A stretch of DNA of 44,526 nucleotides from a virus (taxonomy: Duplodnaviria > Caudoviricetes): IMG/VR virus record IMGVR_UViG_3300006930_000015, positions 1-44,526 of that record. The stretch is one strand, 5' to 3'. The translations under genes and the position numbers were made by a program. The notes beneath the pieces were generated by a model. It was given only the letters and a program-made list of their open reading frames with translations. It did not search any database and had not been told where the DNA came from. Of the stretch, positions 8,708 through 26,454 are shown piece after piece. Positions within the stretch are counted from its first letter, which is position 1. Every line of letters starts with the position of its first letter.

Positions 8708-9208
8708 ATGGGTATAATAAGTATAACACCAATAGAAGATAACACACCAGCGTCAGCAAACTCAATTAATGAACCAATCGGTAAAATAGTAGCAGAGCTT
8801 AATGGTAATATTGATACTGCTAACTTAAAAAACAGCGGAGTAACACGAGATAAATTAGCTGCTAATTCAGTAACTAGTGATAAATTAAATTTTACTAAAA
8901 CTATTGATGACAATGGTTGGACAGTGTATGACTATGGAACATGGAAACAGTACTGTAAGAAAGGTCAAGTATCAGTATCAGTAGGAGCAAAGTTGTTTAA
9001 CATAGCTGGAGACACTGGTAATCTTCCAGTAGGATTAACTACAGTTGGAGACTCACACGTTAGCGGAATTTTTGGTACAGCTAGTGCAGCTATTACTGGA
9101 ACAATATTTGCAGCTCCAACAAGTAACAAAGTACAATTTATAGTATCTAATCAATATACAGAAACTATTAGTATTCTTGGATATTGGGATATAACGATAG
9201 TAGCGTAG
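8708..9208 (+). CDS. tail-associated protein (short fibre-like)
   Basis: IDTANL / VTRDKL / VTSDKL shaft repeats followed by DDNGWTVYDYG head. Confidence 0.55.
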   Translation: MGIISITPIEDNTPASANSINEPIGKIVAELNGNIDTANLKNSGVTRDKLAANSVTSDKLNFTKTIDDNGWTVYDYGTWKQYCKKGQVSVSVGAKLFNIAGDTGNLPVGLTTVGDSHVSGIFGTASAAITGTIFAAPTSNKVQFIVSNQYTETISILGYWDITIVA

Positions 9209-9209
9209 T

Positions 9210-9431
9210 ATGGCTATTTCTCCAATTCAATTAACTCCAGGAATGGATAATGGTACTATGGTATCTTCGATTAATAATAATTTCCAACAGATTGAATCGG
9301 AGAATCGTACTAAGGTTATAAAAGATGAGAATGGTGATAGTAGGATTATAATTGGTAAGTTTCCAGATGGAACGTACGGAATAATAATAAGTAAACCAGG
9401 AATAGATGTTAATTCATTATTCACGAGTTAA
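9210..9431 (+). CDS. small tail protein
   Basis: INNNF motif and RIIIGK..DGTYG..ISKPGIDV motif seen in phage tail proteins. Confidence 0.55.
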   Translation: MAISPIQLTPGMDNGTMVSSINNNFQQIESENRTKVIKDENGDSRIIIGKFPDGTYGIIISKPGIDVNSLFTS

Positions 9432-9433
9432 TT

Positions 9434-10108
9434 ATGGATATATCTAAAATAATATTCTCATCTAATATACCTATTGACAAAATAATAGCTACATATACAG
9501 GTAGTTTTACAGCCACTATATCTCCAAGAAATGTAATACATCCAATACCAACAAACATAAATGATACAACATATTTCCAAGGTATATTTTCAATAGACAA
9601 TGGAACAACATGGAATGACTTTGGCACTACAGAACCTATACAGGTTTTTGGAATGTCACAGTCTGGGGTATTTAATGTTATATCAAGGAATAAACTATTT
9701 GGAGGTTCTCAGTATACTGTATTGTATAAAGTAGTATTAATAGCTAAACCTACACAAGGTATAATACCAATACAAGATATAGGTACTAATACTTACTTCA
9801 ATTCTAATTTAAACTATCAGAAGATATTATCAGATACTACGCAAAACTTTTCAGTTAGTTCTGGCGGTAGTACGATACTTACATTTGACCATGACTTAGG
9901 ATATGTTCCAAAAATAAGACCATTCGTGTATACGTCAAATTTAACTGATTATGGAACTGGTATGTATGAATATTGTACACTACAAACTAATATAGCTGAC
10001 ACAGTTGGTATAAGAGTTACCACAACTAAAGTATATGTAGATATAGATAACACACCATACTCAAATACGTTATCTGGAATTATAGGAATGAGGATATATT
10101 ATGACTAG
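9434..10108 (+). CDS. hypothetical tail protein
   Basis: FNSNLNYQKI and HDLGYVP motifs; operon position. Confidence 0.55.
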   Translation: MDISKIIFSSNIPIDKIIATYTGSFTATISPRNVIHPIPTNINDTTYFQGIFSIDNGTTWNDFGTTEPIQVFGMSQSGVFNVISRNKLFGGSQYTVLYKVVLIAKPTQGIIPIQDIGTNTYFNSNLNYQKILSDTTQNFSVSSGGSTILTFDHDLGYVPKIRPFVYTSNLTDYGTGMYEYCTLQTNIADTVGIRVTTTKVYVDIDNTPYSNTLSGIIGMRIYYD

Positions 10109-17920: not shown

Positions 17921-18395
17921 GGTTAATCTCCTTCATTGTTTCAGTATTTGTGTGGCTTGCAGCCGCTACCATTGCAATTTTGGATAGATTATCTCTGTCT
18001 TTAGCTGTTATTTCATGTACTTTACGAAGCCCATCAGCAACGCCATCTGCGTAACCTTTTACATAGTTTGCTTCTTCTTCTGAGTCAATATTTTTAGCTC
18101 TATCTGCCAATTCTTTAGACTTCTCTGACTGTATATCTTCATTCTTTGCCAACACAGACTCACGATAATCTAAATCAATCTCTTTCTTCGCCAACTTAAT
18201 ATTAGACGCTTTGTTATCACGTAACACCTTTAATTCTGCATCTTGTAGTTCAATCTTATTATTAAGTTTTATCTCATTAACTTTATATTTACTTACTTGT
18301 GCTTTTAATTCAGATATTTGTTTTTTACTATTATTTTTACCTGTTTCTATTGCTCCAGCAATTGCTTTATCGTAATCTTTTTTAATTATAAACAT
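17874..18395 (-). CDS. coiled-coil hypothetical protein
   Basis: Heptad-rich; GYADGVADG motif; coupled to upstream gene. Confidence 0.6.
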   Translation of the reverse strand: MFIIKKDYDKAIAGAIETGKNNSKKQISELKAQVSKYKVNEIKLNNKIELQDAELKVLRDNKASNIKLAKKEIDLDYRESVLAKNEDIQSEKSKELADRAKNIDSEEEANYVKGYADGVADGLRKVHEITAKDRDNLSKIAMVAAASHTNTETMKEINHEFRLTEGSADKKTK

Positions 18396-19429
18396 TATTT
18401 TAACTCCTCTAACATTCCTTGTTTTATTAAATCTTCTATTTCATCTGTATCGTCTACTGTCATAGTCTTAAATCCACCTATAAACAATCCATTACCTATA
18501 TATAAATCATACTCTGTAGTATTGGTGACTCTTTTAAGTTTTGGCATTTCACCTGGTTCACCAAATAATACTGCATAATCTGTTTGTGGTGGTTTATACA
18601 TTCTAGATAATATATCGTCTACTACCTTATCATAATCTGCGTTTTTAAGTGGTACTATAACTGCATTATCTTTATTGATTCCCATTTCAGGTAATATCTC
18701 AATATCTGTGACTATAAGTTTAGAATATTGCATACCCTCAACCATACTATATCCAAATGATTCGTGGTCTGATAGTTGTACCAAGAAATCTGACTCACGT
18801 ATTTTATCTATGGCATTGATAGTAGGTTTCTGTACAGTAAAGCTTTTATTCTTTAATATAGGAAAATCAGTATATACATCCCACTGATAATCTATGCCAC
18901 GTTTGTTAAGTGCCTCTGAGAGCTTCTGAGAGCGTCTCCAGCCCTTGTCTCGTGCAGAACGTGATAATGACACTAACTTTAGCTTTTGAGGCGGTACAGG
19001 GTTATATACACGCTCAACTTCAAGTCCTGGACACCATTTCTTCATTTTATTCTTAGTGTAGTCACTAACTGCAATAACTTTATCAAAGTCTTTATATCCA
19101 TCTACTTTACGTGGGTGACTTCCATGACCGTCACCTGGATGAATAAACAAGTATTTTTTATCAGCTTCTGTATCATATAGATTGAAATAATCAAACGCCC
19201 ATAAACCAATATCAACCTTAACTTTATCGCCTGGATTTATACCAACCAACTTAACTAAACTAGCTAACCTATCGTATGAACCTTTAGGTACGTTACAAGC
19301 CTTATATTCACCATCTCTATGATAAATAGTAATGTCATACTTACTCGCGTATTCCTTACAGATGTTAAGTATCCAAGTCTCTGTTCCACCCATCTTAAAA
19401 GGATTTTCAAAGAATATACCAATCTTCAT
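18395..19429 (-). CDS. glycosyltransferase, GT-B fold (GT4-like)
   Basis: MKI...GGTET, IAVSD, VYNP, SR..DKG, VQLSDHESFGYSMVEGM (EX7E) motifs. Confidence 0.85.
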   Translation of the reverse strand: MKIGIFFENPFKMGGTETWILNICKEYASKYDITIYHRDGEYKACNVPKGSYDRLASLVKLVGINPGDKVKVDIGLWAFDYFNLYDTEADKKYLFIHPGDGHGSHPRKVDGYKDFDKVIAVSDYTKNKMKKWCPGLEVERVYNPVPPQKLKLVSLSRSARDKGWRRSQKLSEALNKRGIDYQWDVYTDFPILKNKSFTVQKPTINAIDKIRESDFLVQLSDHESFGYSMVEGMQYSKLIVTDIEILPEMGINKDNAVIVPLKNADYDKVVDDILSRMYKPPQTDYAVLFGEPGEMPKLKRVTNTTEYDLYIGNGLFIGGFKTMTVDDTDEIEDLIKQGMLEELK

Positions 19430-19989
19430 TATTTCCTCCTAATAACGAATTGCTCTCCGTCAGATGTAGTTCCCCATGAGTACTTTTCAGAGTCTAATGT
19501 GTTACTAAAGGCATTAACTGCATCAAACAACCAAGGTATTTCTTTATAATCATCAATTACCATAACACCTTTATCGTTAAGTAGTTCGATAGCCATTGCC
19601 ATATCTTGAGTTGCTGGTAGTTTTCTATGGTCACCATCTACAAAGATAAAATCAAACAAATAGTTATCTACTATCATTTGAGCTAATGTGTTAAATGATT
19701 TACCCTTGTGTTTGGTAACTCTAGCTTTATACGGTTTAATATTATTATCAAAACGTTTCTCATACTCATCCACATATCCATCCCAATCTTCAGCTTTATC
19801 AGCTTCGAAAATATCAGATACGTCAAGTAGTGAATCTGGGAATTTATCTAGTATAAATACCGATGCTTGACCTTCATAACAGCCAATTTCTAATGCATTT
19901 TCAATATTCAAACCTTCTAATAACTTATCCCAAGTTTTGCCACCACGTTCAGCAAACCATGTATTTGTATATTGTTTTTTACTTGCCAT
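19429..19989 (-). CDS. class I SAM-dependent methyltransferase (Methyltransf_24-like)
   Basis: LEIGCYEGQAS, FDFIFVDGDH, GVMVIDDY motifs. Confidence 0.85.
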   Translation of the reverse strand: MASKKQYTNTWFAERGGKTWDKLLEGLNIENALEIGCYEGQASVFILDKFPDSLLDVSDIFEADKAEDWDGYVDEYEKRFDNNIKPYKARVTKHKGKSFNTLAQMIVDNYLFDFIFVDGDHRKLPATQDMAMAIELLNDKGVMVIDDYKEIPWLFDAVNAFSNTLDSEKYSWGTTSDGEQFVIRRK

Positions 19990-19991
19990 TA

Positions 19992-20294
19992 TTATTTCTC
20001 CTCATAAAATTGTCTTACTAGTTTGTTTATATATGATTCTGTAGGCTTTCTTTCACCCATAGGGTCAAACGAGAATAGCACACTAGTAAACTTAATGCTA
20101 ACCATACCATTATTCGTGATGAAACGCCCGAACTCACCTTTACTTTTTCCTCCACCCCAAGATGTCCCTTTGTATACAATATATTCTAACTTATTATTAC
20201 TACGTGTAGCCCTAATGCATACATCTCCTGGGCGTATCTCTTGACCATGTGAGTCATATCTTGCAAACCTAGAACTCATAGTGAGGGTCACCAA
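19992..20294 (-). CDS. hypothetical protein (true start probably the second Met)
   Basis: D..GQEIRPGD SH3-like start; packed in operon. Confidence 0.55.
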   Translation of the reverse strand: MVTLTMSSRFARYDSHGQEIRPGDVCIRATRSNNKLEYIVYKGTSWGGGKSKGEFGRFITNNGMVSIKFTSVLFSFDPMGERKPTESYINKLVRQFYEEK

Positions 20295-21132
20295 CCTGTA
20301 ATACTTTTAATCCTAATAAACGCCACATACGGCAAACAGAAGGTCTATCATCTATAACATATTTAACGTTATATTTGTTTCTAATATTATTATCAAACAG
20401 TTCTTTTTTTACAATATAGTCAGGTCGGTTATCGTTATCAGCTCTGGTGTATATCTCATCGTAATTTACTCCGTTGTCTTTTAGCCACTTCTCTGTAATG
20501 TCTTTATGTTCTTCACTACGTCCAGTTAGGATAATAACCCTATAGCCGTTATCGTAAGCCATGCCAACAATGTTACTAACAGCGTCATCAATAGTATCAC
20601 CCATAGCTTTGCTAGCATCATAAGGATTCCTATTACACATATGAGCAAGAGTGCCATCAACATCGACAATAATAGCTTCTTCAAGATTATCATCATATTT
20701 AATCTCCTCTTTAGTTAGTGGTTCGATGTATTTCCTATGCATATCTAGTATGGCTTCCATAGGTACGCTATTCGGTCGTTTACGGTTTCGCTTGATACAT
20801 TCCTCTAATGGTGTATCTATAAATAAAACACAAAAGTCTACATTATGTTCTCTGGCTATTTGCTCTAACCGTCTTTTATGTACTGGATTGAAGTTCGTAT
20901 CATCTACTACAACACTAAGTCTATTATTTAATGCGTCAATTATACGTAAATCTTCTATTTCTATAACATTTCTTTCATCTTTGAATGTATAATCTGGGAA
21001 ATATTCAGTCCTTATATCATCTTTATTTACACGCTCATATCCTTTTTCAACTAACTCTTTGGCATAAGTAGTTTTTCCGCTAGCGGGCAGTCCCTTAAGA
21101 AAGAGGATTTCCTGTTTTTTATTGCTTTCCAT
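20269..21132 (-). CDS. pseT: polynucleotide 5'-kinase / 3'-phosphatase (T4 PseT-like)
   Basis: P-loop GLPASGKTT, RVNKDDIR, VVDDTN; HAD domain DVDGT, TGR, K, IDDR. Confidence 0.9.
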   Translation of the reverse strand: MESNKKQEILFLKGLPASGKTTYAKELVEKGYERVNKDDIRTEYFPDYTFKDERNVIEIEDLRIIDALNNRLSVVVDDTNFNPVHKRRLEQIAREHNVDFCVLFIDTPLEECIKRNRKRPNSVPMEAILDMHRKYIEPLTKEEIKYDDNLEEAIIVDVDGTLAHMCNRNPYDASKAMGDTIDDAVSNIVGMAYDNGYRVIILTGRSEEHKDITEKWLKDNGVNYDEIYTRADNDNRPDYIVKKELFDNNIRNKYNVKYVIDDRPSVCRMWRLLGLKVLQVGDPHYEF

Positions 21133-22360: not shown

Positions 22361-23341
22361 CTAATTCTCGCCAGTACTCCTCCCAGATGTTTTGCTAATT
22401 GTTTCTTGGTCTTTAATGACCGATGTCTCCAGTTCGCCATTGGAGTCTCCTAACATTATTTTCTCTTTATAATATTGAGGCAAGCCATTAGTTGCCATTG
22501 CAAGAAAGTCATTCATATAAATATTCCATAGTTTGTCTTTTATATTATCTTTTTCTTCTTCTATTATATCGTTACGTACTTCTTTTATAAGTGGTCCTAT
22601 GTCTTTAGGATTACCTAGTAACGTGCCATTGTCTCGTAAGTGTTGTATTGCTTTATTCCATCGTGCCTTTGATTTATATTGAGACATTGCAACTTCTAGT
22701 TTACCCTTACCTGTATTTTCTTTTTTCCAGTCTTTGTTATGTACTTCCTTAAATGCTTCTGTTACATACTTGCCAGACATAACAGTTTGTGGTATTTGAT
22801 TTAAGAATAGCCAAGGTTTATACGCCTTAACTACAACGCCTTCAATCTTACTACCACCCAAGTAGCTTACCGTATCATTAACCATTTCAATAACGCCAGA
22901 TGCGTTAGCTTCACCCTTAAACAATAGTGGAACTGTATCTATTTCAAATATTTCAGCCCATTTTTTACACTCTTCTATACCAAAATGCTCCATCGTTTCA
23001 GAATTATAAACTCCAAATAATGCAATGTAATTCTTTGGTGTATTGTCGTATGCAAGTGTATTATGTTTAGGCTTCTGTAAGTATTCACCATAAAATGTCA
23101 TATTATCTGGTATTTTATCTTCGATTGTTTTGATGTAATCAACCGCTTTAATAAACATCATATCAGGATTATCTAAATCTTGTTCCTTACCTTTAGAACG
23201 TACAAACAATTGTCCATTTACTTTACCGAATCCTAATTGTGAACCATCAACTTTTTCTGTTATCTCTACTACAGTATCAAACAAACTCGAAATTTGCTTG
23301 TCGCCTATGTGTAGTATCTTTGGAAATGCTGCTGTGTTCAT
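22361..23341 (-). CDS. RNA ligase (Rnl2-like nucleotidyltransferase)
   Basis: FPKI, motif I TEKVDGS, III FYGEY, IIIa LFGV, IV EGVVVK, V GKYV..FKE. Confidence 0.82.
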   Translation of the reverse strand: MNTAAFPKILHIGDKQISSLFDTVVEITEKVDGSQLGFGKVNGQLFVRSKGKEQDLDNPDMMFIKAVDYIKTIEDKIPDNMTFYGEYLQKPKHNTLAYDNTPKNYIALFGVYNSETMEHFGIEECKKWAEIFEIDTVPLLFKGEANASGVIEMVNDTVSYLGGSKIEGVVVKAYKPWLFLNQIPQTVMSGKYVTEAFKEVHNKDWKKENTGKGKLEVAMSQYKSKARWNKAIQHLRDNGTLLGNPKDIGPLIKEVRNDIIEEEKDNIKDKLWNIYMNDFLAMATNGLPQYYKEKIMLGDSNGELETSVIKDQETISKTSGRSTGEN

Positions 23342-24058: not shown

Positions 24059-24817
24059 TTAAGCATTTACTAATCGTCCTTCACCTTTTAATTTAGACTC
24101 ATTTGTCCAACAACCACATTTCCTACATTGATACCTTTGAACCTTTCCATTACGTCTCATGTTAAACCCACGTTTCTCTAGTTTATCACTACCGCATTTA
24201 GGACAAATACCGTTAATTTGTAATATGTCTCCGACATTAGGGTGATTCCTTATAAATGGTAAGAATTTATTATATAGTTTCTCCAGCAGTACAATATCCT
24301 GTCGATTGTACAGTTCCATAAGTCTCTCAATCTTTGGTGTTGGATTATTCAAGAAATCATCTTCAATATCTGCATATGTAATCTTACGTTTACTTCCTAT
24401 ATCTAAGTATTCGCATAAATCATTAAGACTATTAGATTGAAACTTGAATTCCCTTCTTGCAACCTGTAATGTGTCTACGCTCTTATATGGTGATACTGGA
24501 CCACGCCCTTCTTTTATAAAGAACCTGTTTGCCATTTTATTATCAAACTTATTACCGTTATGAGCAACTACAATATCAGCTTCATTAAGTAAGTTCCATA
24601 GTTTATCTACTAATCCGTCATATCCACCATCATGATTTCTTGACACGTAAGTAATGTTCTTATCACCTTCCCATTTATATGCAAAACACATAAGTTCTTG
24701 GTGTCTAATAGTTTTAACTACTTTAAAATCCCATTTAGACCCATATCCACCTACTATATCTCTTGATACTTCAATATCAAAGAATAGTTTTTTTACTTTA
24801 GTCGTCTCCATTAGCAA
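24059..24817 (-). CDS. DEDD 3'-5' exonuclease (RNase H-like fold) with C-terminal Zn ribbon
   Basis: FFDIE, AHNGNKFD, DTL, YNRQD; CPKC..CRKC. Confidence 0.85.
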   Translation of the reverse strand: MLMETTKVKKLFFDIEVSRDIVGGYGSKWDFKVVKTIRHQELMCFAYKWEGDKNITYVSRNHDGGYDGLVDKLWNLLNEADIVVAHNGNKFDNKMANRFFIKEGRGPVSPYKSVDTLQVARREFKFQSNSLNDLCEYLDIGSKRKITYADIEDDFLNNPTPKIERLMELYNRQDIVLLEKLYNKFLPFIRNHPNVGDILQINGICPKCGSDKLEKRGFNMRRNGKVQRYQCRKCGCWTNESKLKGEGRLVNA

Positions 24818-24948
24818 TGTCGTTCATCTCCTCGTATGTCATATTTAATAATTCTATCTCGTAATCATCCATTGTCGTTCCTTTTTGTCGTTTATTTATA
24901 AACTTACAGCTATCAGTAGCTTGTAGGCGTTGCATGGACGCCTCGTTA

Positions 24949-25023
24949 TGGTCGCGGGAACCTGAATTTAACAGATACCTTCCAGACCCATTCCGGATGT
25001 GCTATCATTGCCACCATCCCGCG
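24949..25023 (-). tRNA. non-canonical tRNA-like RNA (Pro-UGG-like)
   Basis: Cloverleaf with CGCGGGA/TCCCGCG acceptor, A73-CCA and anticodon arm TCCGG-AATGGGT-CTGGA; has A33, D-loop TGATA and T-loop TTAAATT instead of conserved bases. Confidence 0.65.
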
Positions 25024-25064
25024 CAGCTGGAACTCCACTACTGATATGTGTAAACTTATAAATT

Positions 25065-25176
25065 TGGACCCAAAGGAAGGACTCGAACCTTCAACCTATG
25101 CGTTGCTTACAGATACAGGTTTCCCATATTATATCTGATTCTTTCATACATTGCTCTACCATTGAGCTACTTCGGG
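25065..25176 (-). ncRNA. tRNA-like RNA with ~37-nt insertion in the anticodon arm
   Basis: Canonical acceptor (CCCGAAG/CTTTGGG, T-CCA), D arm GCTC-AATGGTA-GAGC, T arm GAAGG-TTCGAGT-CCTTC; 54-nt anticodon domain containing an 8-bp helix and GG-GAAA-CC. Confidence 0.8.
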
Positions 25177-25179
25177 TTA

Positions 25180-25255
25180 TGGTCAGAGTCGTAGGAGTCG
25201 AACCTACAATCTCCCGCGTCCAAGGCGGGCGTTTCACCAACAAAACTTCACTCTG
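25180..25255 (-). tRNA. tRNA-Pro(UGG)
   Basis: 76 nt; CCCGC-CT-TGG-AC-GCGGG anticodon arm, GTAGG-TTCGACT-CCTAC, C1-G72, A73, encoded CCA; G7/G66 mismatch and A8. Confidence 0.85.
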
Positions 25256-25375
25256 ATATGCAGAGTCTCGCCTCTCTGCTCGTTGATTCATACTTATATT
25301 CAATATATTGTATGTGCCAGCGTCGCTACCGCCTTTGGTGTTACACGTGTTTTTACCGTACGTCTACGGTTGATA

Positions 25376-25421
25376 GTAGGTTTTCGGAATTGAACCGAAC
25401 ATTACCAGTTTCCAGACCTAC
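25376..25421 (-). ncRNA. minimal tRNA-like element (acceptor + D-loop + T arm, no anticodon arm)
   Basis: GTAGGT/ACCTAC stem, linker containing CTGGTAA, T arm TTCGG-TTCAATT-CCGAA. Confidence 0.55.
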
Positions 25422-25426
25422 ATATA

Positions 25427-25509
25427 TGGTGGAGATATAGTGAATCGAACACTAGTCCAGACAAGTACGCATTTACGTCTTAATCGCCTGTCAAAACCAT
25501 TTTATCCCC
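25427..25509 (-). ncRNA. mini-tmRNA: tRNA-like domain only
   Basis: 5' GGGGATAAAATGGTTTTGACAGG and 3' CTGGAC-TAGTG-TTCGATT-CACTA-TATCTCC-ACCA; G3-U70 pair; no D stem; P2 closed after 33 nt. Confidence 0.8.
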
Positions 25510-25585
25510 AAGTGTGGCTGTTAGTTCCTCATTTACGCCTCATTTAACTACGAGCCTCTCTATCGTAGCACCACTACTTTATGCA

Positions 25586-26224
25586 CTAATACCAGTGATT
25601 AGAATTCCAAAATGCAACTGCTTGAGACCAGCCGCCATATCTACTATCGACATAATTAGTCATAGCTTTAAGTGCTGCTACAGGGTCATTCCATGCTCCA
25701 GCCCATTTACCGCAAGGTAATTGTTGACCTAGACCACATGCCCCTGAACTCTTGTTAACTGCATTTGGATTCCAACCAGACTCACGAGATACGATTGAAT
25801 CAACGTATGACCATTGAGCTTCTGGTATGCCTGATGCTGCAAGCCAAGTATATTTATCTCCACTAATCGTAGTTACAGTAGCTGGTTGAATAACCCTTAG
25901 TGCTGCCTGTACTGATTTTGATTGTGCTTCTTTCTTAGCTTGCAATTTGACTTTTAAAGATTCGTTCTCCTGCTGTAAATTCTGCGTTTTAATGCGTTCT
26001 TCACGAAGAGATGAGTCAATACTCGTCTTTTGTTCTGAAAGCTCTGAGAAACGCTTAGAAACAGTCTCATGGGCTTTCTTTTCTTTAACCGTCTGTGTAC
26101 GTGCTGATTGTAATGCATTTACAGTCTCTGTATGTCTAAATAATACAGACACGTTCATAACGATAAGGATAGCAATAATAAATTTTAAACTATTCTTGCG
26201 TAGCCAATTTAGTAATTTACGAAT
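25586..26224 (-). CDS. secreted or membrane-anchored lytic transglycosylase (SLT/aggregation-promoting-factor-like C-terminus); probable ATT start
   Basis: IVSRESGWNPNAVN.SSGACGLGQ..RYGGW..A..FW..NHWY; coiled-coil linker; frame is open upstream of ATG 26158 with a basic + hydrophobic signal-like segment and GAAAGG 6 nt before ATT 26224. Confidence 0.8.
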   Translation of the reverse strand: MRKLLNWLRKNSLKFIIAILIVMNVSVLFRHTETVNALQSARTQTVKEKKAHETVSKRFSELSEQKTSIDSSLREERIKTQNLQQENESLKVKLQAKKEAQSKSVQAALRVIQPATVTTISGDKYTWLAASGIPEAQWSYVDSIVSRESGWNPNAVNKSSGACGLGQQLPCGKWAGAWNDPVAALKAMTNYVDSRYGGWSQAVAFWNSNHWY

Positions 26225-26390: not shown

Positions 26391-26454
26391 ATCATATCAA
26401 ACTTTGTTCAAAATGTCAATAGTTTTTTATAAAAATGTGTTGTAAAATAGTCAA
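26391..26454 (-). promoter_or_regulatory. sigma70 promoter with upstream palindromic box
   Basis: TTGACA(26419-26414)-N17-TATGAT(26396-26391), extended TG; box TTGTAAAATAGTCAA at 26440-26454. Confidence 0.8.

Follow-up and report, generated by a model that had tools for sequence, protein, structure and literature searches.

Several RNAs that depart from ordinary tRNAs or from standard transfer-messenger RNA (tmRNA) have described roles. The tmRNAs of mitochondria that have lost their coding sequence (CDS) are supposed to act as tag-less rescue helpers, and t-elements, top-half tRNA mimics described for plant mitochondria, guide RNase P and RNase Z. Anticodon nucleases cut anticodon loops, and both T4 Pnkp with Rnl1 and Pnkp1-Rnl-Hen1 are known RNA repair systems. 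Closest to the locus described here is an RNA of Mycobacterium phage DS6A that consists of only the tRNA-like domain (TLD) of tmRNA and inhibits tmRNA, perhaps by titrating SmpB, according to the available parts of two articles that cite Mao et al. 2009 (PMC4131195 and PMC11915505); the established roles of the TLD are described in the available part of PMC8012679. Here we analyze the 44,526-base virus record IMGVR_UViG_3300006930_000015 (the window, meaning the whole stretch; completeness rating 100%), in which an array of small RNAs lies in the 770 bases that separate an SLT transglycosylase gene from a DEDD-type exonuclease gene. We read the array as an interchangeable small-RNA cassette in which a near-constant mini-tmRNA, E1, would likely be charged with alanine, bind host SmpB and blunt tmRNA tagging of phage proteins, an interpretation that we give an even chance of being correct.

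An earlier note, made from the letters of this DNA alone, listed five tRNA-shaped RNAs, and all five (E1 to E5) are present on the minus strand within 24895–25509 (615 bp). Perfect 5-bp T-arm hairpins number five in the 700-nt array, where 500 dinucleotide shuffles average 0.012 and never exceed 1; the whole minus strand holds 7. As that note stated, four elements end in an encoded CCA (E1, E3, E4 and the cloverleaf of E5), with E2 the one that does not. Its description of E1 as a TLD-only tmRNA is borne out: the 83-nt RNA shares TLD features with standard tmRNA (RF00023), including G3.U70, A73 and the CCA end, and differs from it in having no mRNA-like domain, tag frame or pseudoknot ring. 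A 13-nt D-loop analogue ending in GAC stands where a D stem is absent, followed by a short connector and a T arm, with no anticodon, and helix 2 is capped by a 31-nt domain between the TLD halves (14–38 nt in 33 sequences). The note's suggestion of an undescribed system does not extend to E1, because the TLD-only tmRNA of DS6A is already in the literature. A covariance model of E1 built from 18 sequences (R1) scores the DS6A TLD, which lay outside the training set, at 66.4 bits (E 6.9e-15), while ordinary tRNAs reach at most 36.3 bits, and E1 is on this comparison of sequences assigned to the family of the DS6A RNA. Both are of the same length class (83 nt), have G3.U70, A73 and a D-loop analogue that ends in GAC, and cap a short helix 2 with an A-rich loop plus a small hairpin. 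They differ in that E1 encodes its CCA, whereas the DS6A gene reads CTA after A73, and in that E1 is part of an RNA cassette in what is probably a Saccharibacteria phage, within a family much larger than the one on record in the literature.

The structure of E1 is preserved through sequence change. In an unfitted MAFFT alignment of 18 sequences, 96.9% of cells pair (41–50% in slid controls) and 14 of 20 pairs show double changes, and the covariation score is reached by none of 500 shuffles; a structure-anchored parse of 33 sequences finds pairing in 231/231 cells of the acceptor, 165/165 of the T stem and 155/165 of helix 2. We collected 24 distinct complete SLT-to-exonuclease regions, window included, from transglycosylase-alignment and exonuclease scans. 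R1 scores 73.9–92.2 bits in 23 of them and 38.8 bits in the remaining one (L083), a count less independent than it looks, since 12 of the 23 matches are training sequences and the other 11 form one close clade. Beyond these loci, one exact TLD pattern matched 50 IMG/VR loci with 31 distinct strings, 30 of which have the TLD acceptor (L034, in which the acceptor stem is absent, was excluded), and two relatives, L066 and L089, pass the Rfam cut-off for tmRNA (RF00023). In 24 of the 50 loci (L005, L008, L012, L013, L038, L045 and others) the TLD-only RNA is of a minimal 66-nt form, in which the two halves are separated by just a 14-nt hairpin. The TLD-only tmRNA thus passes from a single phage oddity in print to an RNA that is near-fixed in a phage family and found across unrelated viruses, and phage interference with trans-translation becomes directly testable with an 83-nt RNA.

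An RNA cassette occupies all 24 regions, over lengths of 736–1882 bases and with 0 to 9 ordinary tRNAs called by ARAGORN. Its only near-constant members are E1 (23/24) and a tRNA-Pro (17/24). E2 has a single homologue, E4 lacks any, and a search with a second model, R2, found E5 in none of the other syntenic loci. Non-decoding tRNA frames recur among the relatives (L055, L066, L067, L087, L090, L144), which also hold CCA-less top-half elements and enlarged-anticodon frames in a set that differs from phage to phage; non-decoding tRNA look-alikes are a habit of this family. The cassette is real and under selection. Random decay in homologous loci was what the earlier note had named as counting against its proposal, and both E1 and E5 instead carry compensatory changes.

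The mini-tmRNAs of L056 (6777–7215), L057, L065 and L139 are interrupted by an HNH-like open reading frame (ORF), which enters the acceptor stem on its 3′ strand and is accompanied by a short duplication. The proximal copy lacks a CCA and carries G3-C70; ~350 nt downstream follows the original 3′ end.

The host is probably a member of Saccharibacteria, because the closest chromosomal relatives of the SLT gene are mostly from that group (17 of 38 matches and 12 of the top 14, with 11 of 38 from Actinobacteria). Five Saccharibacteria genomes (G001–G005) all encode SmpB, and four have a full tmRNA over the cut-off. Each of the five has two genes with the RF-1 domain and so is without ArfB, and the CCA-adding domain PF01743 is found in none of them, compared with 10 of 14 controls; a CCA end is encoded in 52 of 52 host tRNA calls. 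No smpB was found in the phage genome. R1 matched none of 151 Saccharibacteria-class genomes and the E5 core none of 401, hence there is no prophage evidence for the host. The four Saccharibacteria tmRNAs that we read have an unusual T loop, and default ARAGORN missed the tmRNA in the locus shown.

Table 1. Features of the RNA cassette and its surroundings in the window, in the order of the minus strand.
Feature	Position	Strand	Basis and description
Best sigma-70-like promoter candidate	26391..26419	-	Consensus match, TTGACA-17-extended -10, 11/12 matches; upstream of transglycosylase gene
SLT lytic transglycosylase gene	25586..26158	-	PF01464; upstream boundary marker of cassette
E0, uncatalogued conserved RNA motif abutting E1	25510..25579	-	Closing stem, 6-bp hairpin, A-rich linker with two GAGG words
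E1, TLD-only tmRNA, 83 nt	25427..25509	-	G1-C72, G2-C71, G3.U70, A73, CCA
E2, 47-nt top-half tRNA mimic	25375..25421	-	6-bp acceptor, 15-nt loop, T arm; anticodon and CCA absent
Structured spacer	25256..25374	-	Two or three hairpins; fold z -2.35
E3, tRNA-Pro(UGG)	25180..25255	-	ARAGORN; Rfam tRNA 51.8 bits; C1-G72, A73, U33, CCA
E4, 112-nt tRNA frame	25065..25176	-	Rfam tRNA 49.8 bits; canonical D and T arms, C1-G72, U73, CCA
E5	24895..25062	-	Closing stem P1, RGAG, stem P2, GGGN junction, invariant 27-nt hairpin module (24921-24947)
DEDD/RNase_H_2-type exonuclease gene	24059..24817	-	PF13482, phrog_403; C-terminal Cys-rich ribbon; downstream boundary marker
ATP-dependent RNA ligase	22361..23341	-	PF09414, KxDG motif I visible
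PseT-type polynucleotide kinase-phosphatase (Pnkp)	20269..21132	-	AAA_33 + HAD_PNKP

The element listed in the earlier note as a degenerate Pro-like tRNA in a long closing stem is only partly that. A tRNA-Pro-like cloverleaf (24949–25023) does lie inside a closing stem of ~24 bp, where ARAGORN calls it only at a lowered threshold, but E5 is more than a degenerate tRNA, being an uncatalogued motif laid over that cloverleaf. Its 27-nt module starts two bases after the CCA of the cloverleaf and occurs in 17 IMG/VR contigs, which represent 16 distinct contexts plus the window; all 17 agree at the six stem positions left free in the search pattern, and variation is confined to two loop bases. A 17-nt E5 pattern gave 28 matches, of which 23 were dropped by eye as unrelated. 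Among 13 members examined, 12 have the RGAG word followed by a 5- to 8-bp stem P2 (L297 has no such stem), and a GGG-N junction stands directly 5′ of the 3′ strand of P2 in 10 of the 12, as well as in the other 2 if P2 is read as 6 bp. Five members, window included, contain a tRNA-like domain. In their alignment, 22 of 32 pairs show double changes and none of 500 shuffles reaches the score, which is strong covariation and not a formal test, the structure having been derived from the same five sequences. The acceptor stem keeps 7/7 pairs in three of the five and 5/7 in one, and is lost in one.

P2 pairs the leader with a strand that the cloverleaf uses as the 3′ half of its anticodon stem; when P2 is imposed, the folds come within 1–4 kcal/mol of the free minimum. 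Because the P2 and cloverleaf folds cross, the two would be expected from these models to alternate or to form a pseudoknot. The anticodon loop of E5 in the window has A32 and A33, and the loops of the five tRNA-bearing members, 6–8 nt long, share only GG(G) and not the canonical loop with a conserved anticodon of a decoding tRNA-Pro. In a near-identical contig (a single contig of depth 9) the T loop is canonical, the anticodon stem is perfected and U34 is missing, which indicates that GGG is kept and the anticodon is not; this variant was read from the assembled contigs of three runs, which cover two samples of one study and are probably of DNA. The same U34 deletion weakens the idea that the CCA of the E5 loop is read by the embedded UGG anticodon. 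Pairing of the loop with the 5′ junction in the window amounts to 3 pairs (p 0.81) and was also set aside, and 7 of 13 members, all without a tRNA-like domain, have upstream complements to the variable loop bases beyond chance expectation. In L285 and L289 (both ~2320–2580) and in L294 (735–990), within phage tRNA regions, a larger tRNA-like frame holds the E5 motif in its anticodon arm.

The sixth conserved element, E0, falls within the coordinates that the earlier note gave to its array and had been missed there. It is 83–90% identical over 41–57 nt to intergenic DNA of Bacillus phage Eldridge, Vibrio phage ZQ26 and phage f2b1; the Eldridge match (89.5% over 57 nt, E 8e-13) lies near the tRNA genes of that phage. 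Its hairpin is paired in 24/24 cells with 2 double changes, in an alignment of only four sequences for which 33 of 500 shuffles score as high, and the fold of E0 alone is not significant (z -0.19).

No family in Rfam 15 matches E5 or E0, which makes them two conserved RNA motifs absent from that collection, and E5 was not found in 50,697 GenBank phage records. Theta ribozymes, which are hepatitis delta virus (HDV)-like, lie beside phage tRNAs according to the available part of PMC10879173. The arrangement here is similar, in that the E5 module stands two bases after a CCA and E0 abuts E1, as a processing ribozyme would. It differs from the theta ribozymes as that part of the article presents them, in that the array gave no Rfam ribozyme match and no match to an HDV-like descriptor (0 matches, with a descriptor that had no positive control). 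The nested double pseudoknot of such ribozymes (P1, P1.1, P2 and P3, with a catalytic C in J4/2) was not found in E5 or E0 with this descriptor, and an HDV-like or theta ribozyme reading of either is not supported; the signature words of hammerhead, pistol and twister ribozymes are likewise absent from the array. We speculate that E5 may be the first of a new class of phage RNA, either a ribozyme or a ligand- or protein-binding switch with an invariant pseudoknotted core, which in one subfamily would have engulfed a tRNA-Pro gene and would gate it, and that E0 may stand for a second new class; this is a tentative suggestion that we think more apt to fail than to hold. The gating part of the proposal is equally doubtful: by pairing its leader with the 3′ strand of the anticodon stem, the RNA could toggle between the motif fold and a chargeable cloverleaf. 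A 27-nt core that stays invariant among phages whose base composition differs widely is a signature of the sort seen in ribozymes and aptamers, and the overlap of E5 with the tRNA offers a simple two-state structure that can be tested. If the proposal is true, the E5 and E0 cassettes would form a phage toolkit for controlling host translation at the RNA level.

E3, which the earlier note correctly described as a near-canonical tRNA-Pro(UGG), is a cloverleaf with UGG in a 7-nt loop and deviates at A8, G7.G66 and A37; it is probably a functional decoding tRNA-Pro, judging from its proline identity and U33. The distinct Pro tRNAs of related loci have A37 in 12/12 and C33 in 10/12, whereas the host Pro tRNAs have G37 (3/3), a host-like feature not found in E3, and the hosts carry TrmD. 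Altered anticodon loops have been described for phage tRNA clusters, and the Pro loop change would fit the nuclease evasion discussed in the available part of that source (PMC10264068) or independence from G37 methylation. As far as that part of the article goes, E3 and the ordinary tRNAs of the relatives resemble those clusters in having Pro loops unlike that of the host, and the present array differs in that four of its five tRNA-shaped RNAs cannot decode normally. The anticodon-less mini-tRNA of the earlier note, E2, indeed consists of an acceptor and a T arm with the anticodon arm absent. Its homologue in L184 has changed stems that still pair and a similar 15-nt loop, and is also CCA-less; a pattern scan of IMG/VR for E2 gave 0 matches. 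Charging of E2 is unlikely, since it has no CCA and the hosts appear to have no CCA-adding enzyme, and its likeliest role, as suggested by its shape, is that of a processing mark. E2 resembles the t-elements in having an acceptor and a T arm without a CCA and in lying directly behind the CCA of another RNA in both known copies; the t-elements are plant-mitochondrial. A Y RNA or YrlA reading of E2 and E5, which would call for a Ro60 (TROVE) partner gene and the YrlA order of T arm then D arm, was rejected, with TROVE found in 0/5 host genomes and in none of 53 phage ORFs scanned; the YrlA match reached only 20.2 bits, across the E3/E4 junction.

E4 has the expanded anticodon domain attributed to it. 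Its Rfam tRNA match skips 48 nt, and an irregular stem of ~55 nt replaces the anticodon arm. We rejected an intron-containing tRNA, since by reading no single excision yields a 7-nt loop with U33 on a 27-31/39-43 stem. A similar architecture with no homology of the insert is seen in L087, L090 and some of 12 IMG/VR pattern matches, and selection on E4 is not supported, because none of the 12 similar architectures has a recognisably similar insert. E2 and E4 are unable to decode and are thinly supported. The spacer between E2 and E3 has no homologue among the compared loci beyond the window's own copy.

The exonuclease (PF13482), the RNA ligase (PF09414) and the Pnkp (AAA_33 and HAD_PNKP) that the earlier note placed after the array do lie on its strand. 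Kinase-phosphatase and ATP-dependent RNA ligase are both present and intact. The Pnkp matches Pnkp1 (4xrp, E 1.5e-40) and T4 Pnk (1ltq, E 5.6e-35) in the PDB, where the ligase has no sequence match at E 0.1 and the exonuclease no informative one. The pair thus resembles T4 Pnkp/Rnl1 and Pnkp1-Rnl-Hen1 in combining a kinase and HAD phosphatase near T4 Pnk and Pnkp1 with an ATP-dependent RNA ligase. In contrast to the T4 system, the phage ligase is of the PF09414 (Rnl2) type and not Rnl1; in contrast to Pnkp1-Rnl-Hen1, no Hen1 was seen in a Pfam scan of 53 phage ORFs; and, as a further difference, the two genes stand apart and some relatives can do without the ligase. Three small ORFs separate exonuclease and ligase, and three small ORFs and an HNH gene separate ligase and Pnkp. 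A full ligase is present in 16 of 20 scorable loci and absent or broken in 4 (four more loci end too soon): it is absent from L057, truncated to 53 aa in L150, absent together with Pnkp from 4.5 kb of L083, and in L061 (ORF 8755–9450) interrupted right after motif I by an insert that we take to be intein-like. L057, L061 and L150 keep both tRNA-Pro and an E1-type RNA, which is intact only in L150. Evidence on the coupling of array and repair genes is therefore mixed, and we take ligase and Pnkp to form, in all likelihood, a general heal-and-seal module that shares this gene block. A role of the exonuclease on RNA is putative at most, and its gene serves here as a boundary marker; its family occurs without tRNAs in 3 of 4 loci of one scan.

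How might such a cassette act? In the inhibitor reading, one transcript would be cut into units by host tRNA-processing enzymes, E1 would be aminoacylated, likely with alanine, and charged E1 would compete for host SmpB, such that fewer phage proteins receive the tmRNA tag during infection. E3 would serve as a working tRNA-Pro with a loop altered from that of the host, E2 as a cutting mark for processing and E4 as a non-decoding tRNA frame, while E5 and E0 would be independent mobile RNA cassettes with their own activity, and ligase and Pnkp a general heal-and-seal pair not dedicated to the cassette RNAs. We favor inhibition because the hosts carry a full tmRNA and SmpB, the phage has no smpB and E1 is kin to the DS6A RNA. 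Several points weigh on the other side. The probable hosts are minimal bacteria; the tmRNA-SmpB system is the only rescue route visible in the five genomes, and blocking it could hurt the phage; alanylation, SmpB binding and inhibition by E1 are predictions. The invariance of G3.U70 and A73 (33/33 E1-type sequences and 18/18 in the MAFFT alignment) was partly built into the search patterns, and an uninterrupted E1 with G3.U70 and ACCA is kept in only 17 of 24 loci, the exceptions being the four HNH insertions, L061 (G3-C70), L060 (ending in TCA) and the decayed copy in L083. The probable host follows from one gene, SLT, with Actinobacteria among its matches. Finally, L083 has neither repair gene in 4.5 kb and is the one locus whose E1 is decayed, which fits some coupling of the two.

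The earlier note had linked the array to ribosome rescue, and E1 does point there, in a direction that leaves room for a rival. Bound to SmpB and charged, E1 would enter stalled ribosomes, accept the peptide and free the ribosome without tagging for degradation. E1 keeps all determinants for charging and A-site entry, mitochondrial CDS-less tmRNAs are conserved together with SmpB according to the available part of PMC11915505, and no ArfB-like gene was seen in the five hosts, so that extra rescue capacity could be useful. We nevertheless think a helper role unlikely, since inhibition was the outcome of the sole experiment reported for a TLD-only RNA (cited in the available parts of PMC4131195 and PMC11915505) and, with neither resume codon nor stop codon, the RNA would have no known release step in the established roles covered by the part of PMC8012679 at hand. 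A far more improbable alternative, which we disfavor almost entirely, takes E1 for what is left of an attP site that served integration into the tmRNA gene of the host. Genes for tmRNA are common integration targets (PMC11915505, available part), yet no tyrosine integrase was found in the phage genome, the two TLD halves are joined in E1, whose T arm and D-loop analogue are unlike those of the four Saccharibacteria tmRNAs, and the covariation of E1 spans the whole fold.

Inhibition by E1 must also be set against two accounts of the array as a whole. The earlier note proposed a co-transcribed panel of tRNA mimics or decoys, plus repair enzymes, against tRNA-targeting defenses; in such a model the decoys would soak up defense nucleases, and ligase and Pnkp would repair the cut RNAs. 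The recurrence of non-decoding frames among relatives, the full ligase downstream in most scorable loci, the joint loss of repair genes and decay of E1 in L083, and Pro loops that differ from the host's in line with the evasion idea (PMC10264068, available part) would all fit. E1 and E2, however, have no anticodon loop to cut, the element set is not conserved, and E1-type RNA and tRNA-Pro remain where the ligase is absent, truncated or broken. The shared strand is unspecific, given that the whole 17.2–39.2 kb block is one-stranded, and a separate 11/12 promoter candidate lies between exonuclease and ligase. A single decoy-plus-repair system is weakly supported, and we judge it rather improbable; with cassette content varying and the ligase lost or broken as described, a coordinated panel with its own repair enzymes is not supported. 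The second account, in which the odd elements are parasites and tRNA genes in decay that have built up in an intergenic region able to tolerate them, is also improbable for the array as a whole. HNH insertions in relatives hit the Met tRNA, E1 and the SLT end, the E4 insert has no homologue and E2 a single one, and the E5 cloverleaf of the window has A33 and a damaged T loop; the strong covariation of E1 and E5, the conservation of E0 across distant phages and the perfect acceptor, D and T stems of E4 all stand against it, and decay can hold for E2, E4 and the spacer only.

With default settings ARAGORN reports one gene of the six here, the tRNA-Pro, and Rfam adds E4 and a partial 20-bit match for E1, such that the check by both programs that had been suggested recovers only part of the array. 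Even if the activities prove ordinary, the locus is a clear case of under-annotated tRNA arrays. A literature search found no description of this cassette, E5 or E0; supplement files 1, 2 and 4 of PMC10690425 lay outside that search, and E5 or E0 may be among the 10,006 candidates of that study, whose searched supplements gave no match.

In the window, portal, adaptor and capsid genes lie on the plus strand and the minus strand carries a long block at ~17.2–39.2 kb. Sigma-70-like sites number 28, compared with 34.3 expected from shuffles, and the two best matches stand before the transglycosylase gene and between exonuclease and ligase; the former is a candidate start of the transcript that would carry the array. 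Downstream of Pnkp, in the same block, are a glycosyltransferase and a SAM methyltransferase (18395–19989, minus strand). Immediately before the exonuclease, the window (24822–24872, minus strand) and all syntenic loci share a conserved tiny ORF of ~22 codons; in every case a long closing-stem RNA precedes it, with an interior that varies from phage to phage.

The relatives show further features of their own. Within the first 100–250 nt after the SLT stop, L055, L056–L068, L136, L144 and L184 carry additional conserved structured motifs that are absent from the window and have no Rfam match at gathering score; among them are a first element that resembles a pseudoknot, one that contains CAAGCAGG, and a top-half tRNA that has no CCA and is succeeded by a run of U. 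L064 and L065 have an HNH-like ORF at the SLT 3′ end, with a duplicated gene end. A tRNA-Met(CAU) has an endonuclease-like ORF in its anticodon loop, with paired ends, in full in L058 and L168 and as a ~100-nt remnant keeping both paired ends in L061, L063 and L140, the insert being absent in L060, L062 and L064. By inspection, the insert has neither the terminal G of group I introns nor a bulge-helix-bulge; it may be a protein-spliced intron and a possible substrate for the ligase and Pnkp.

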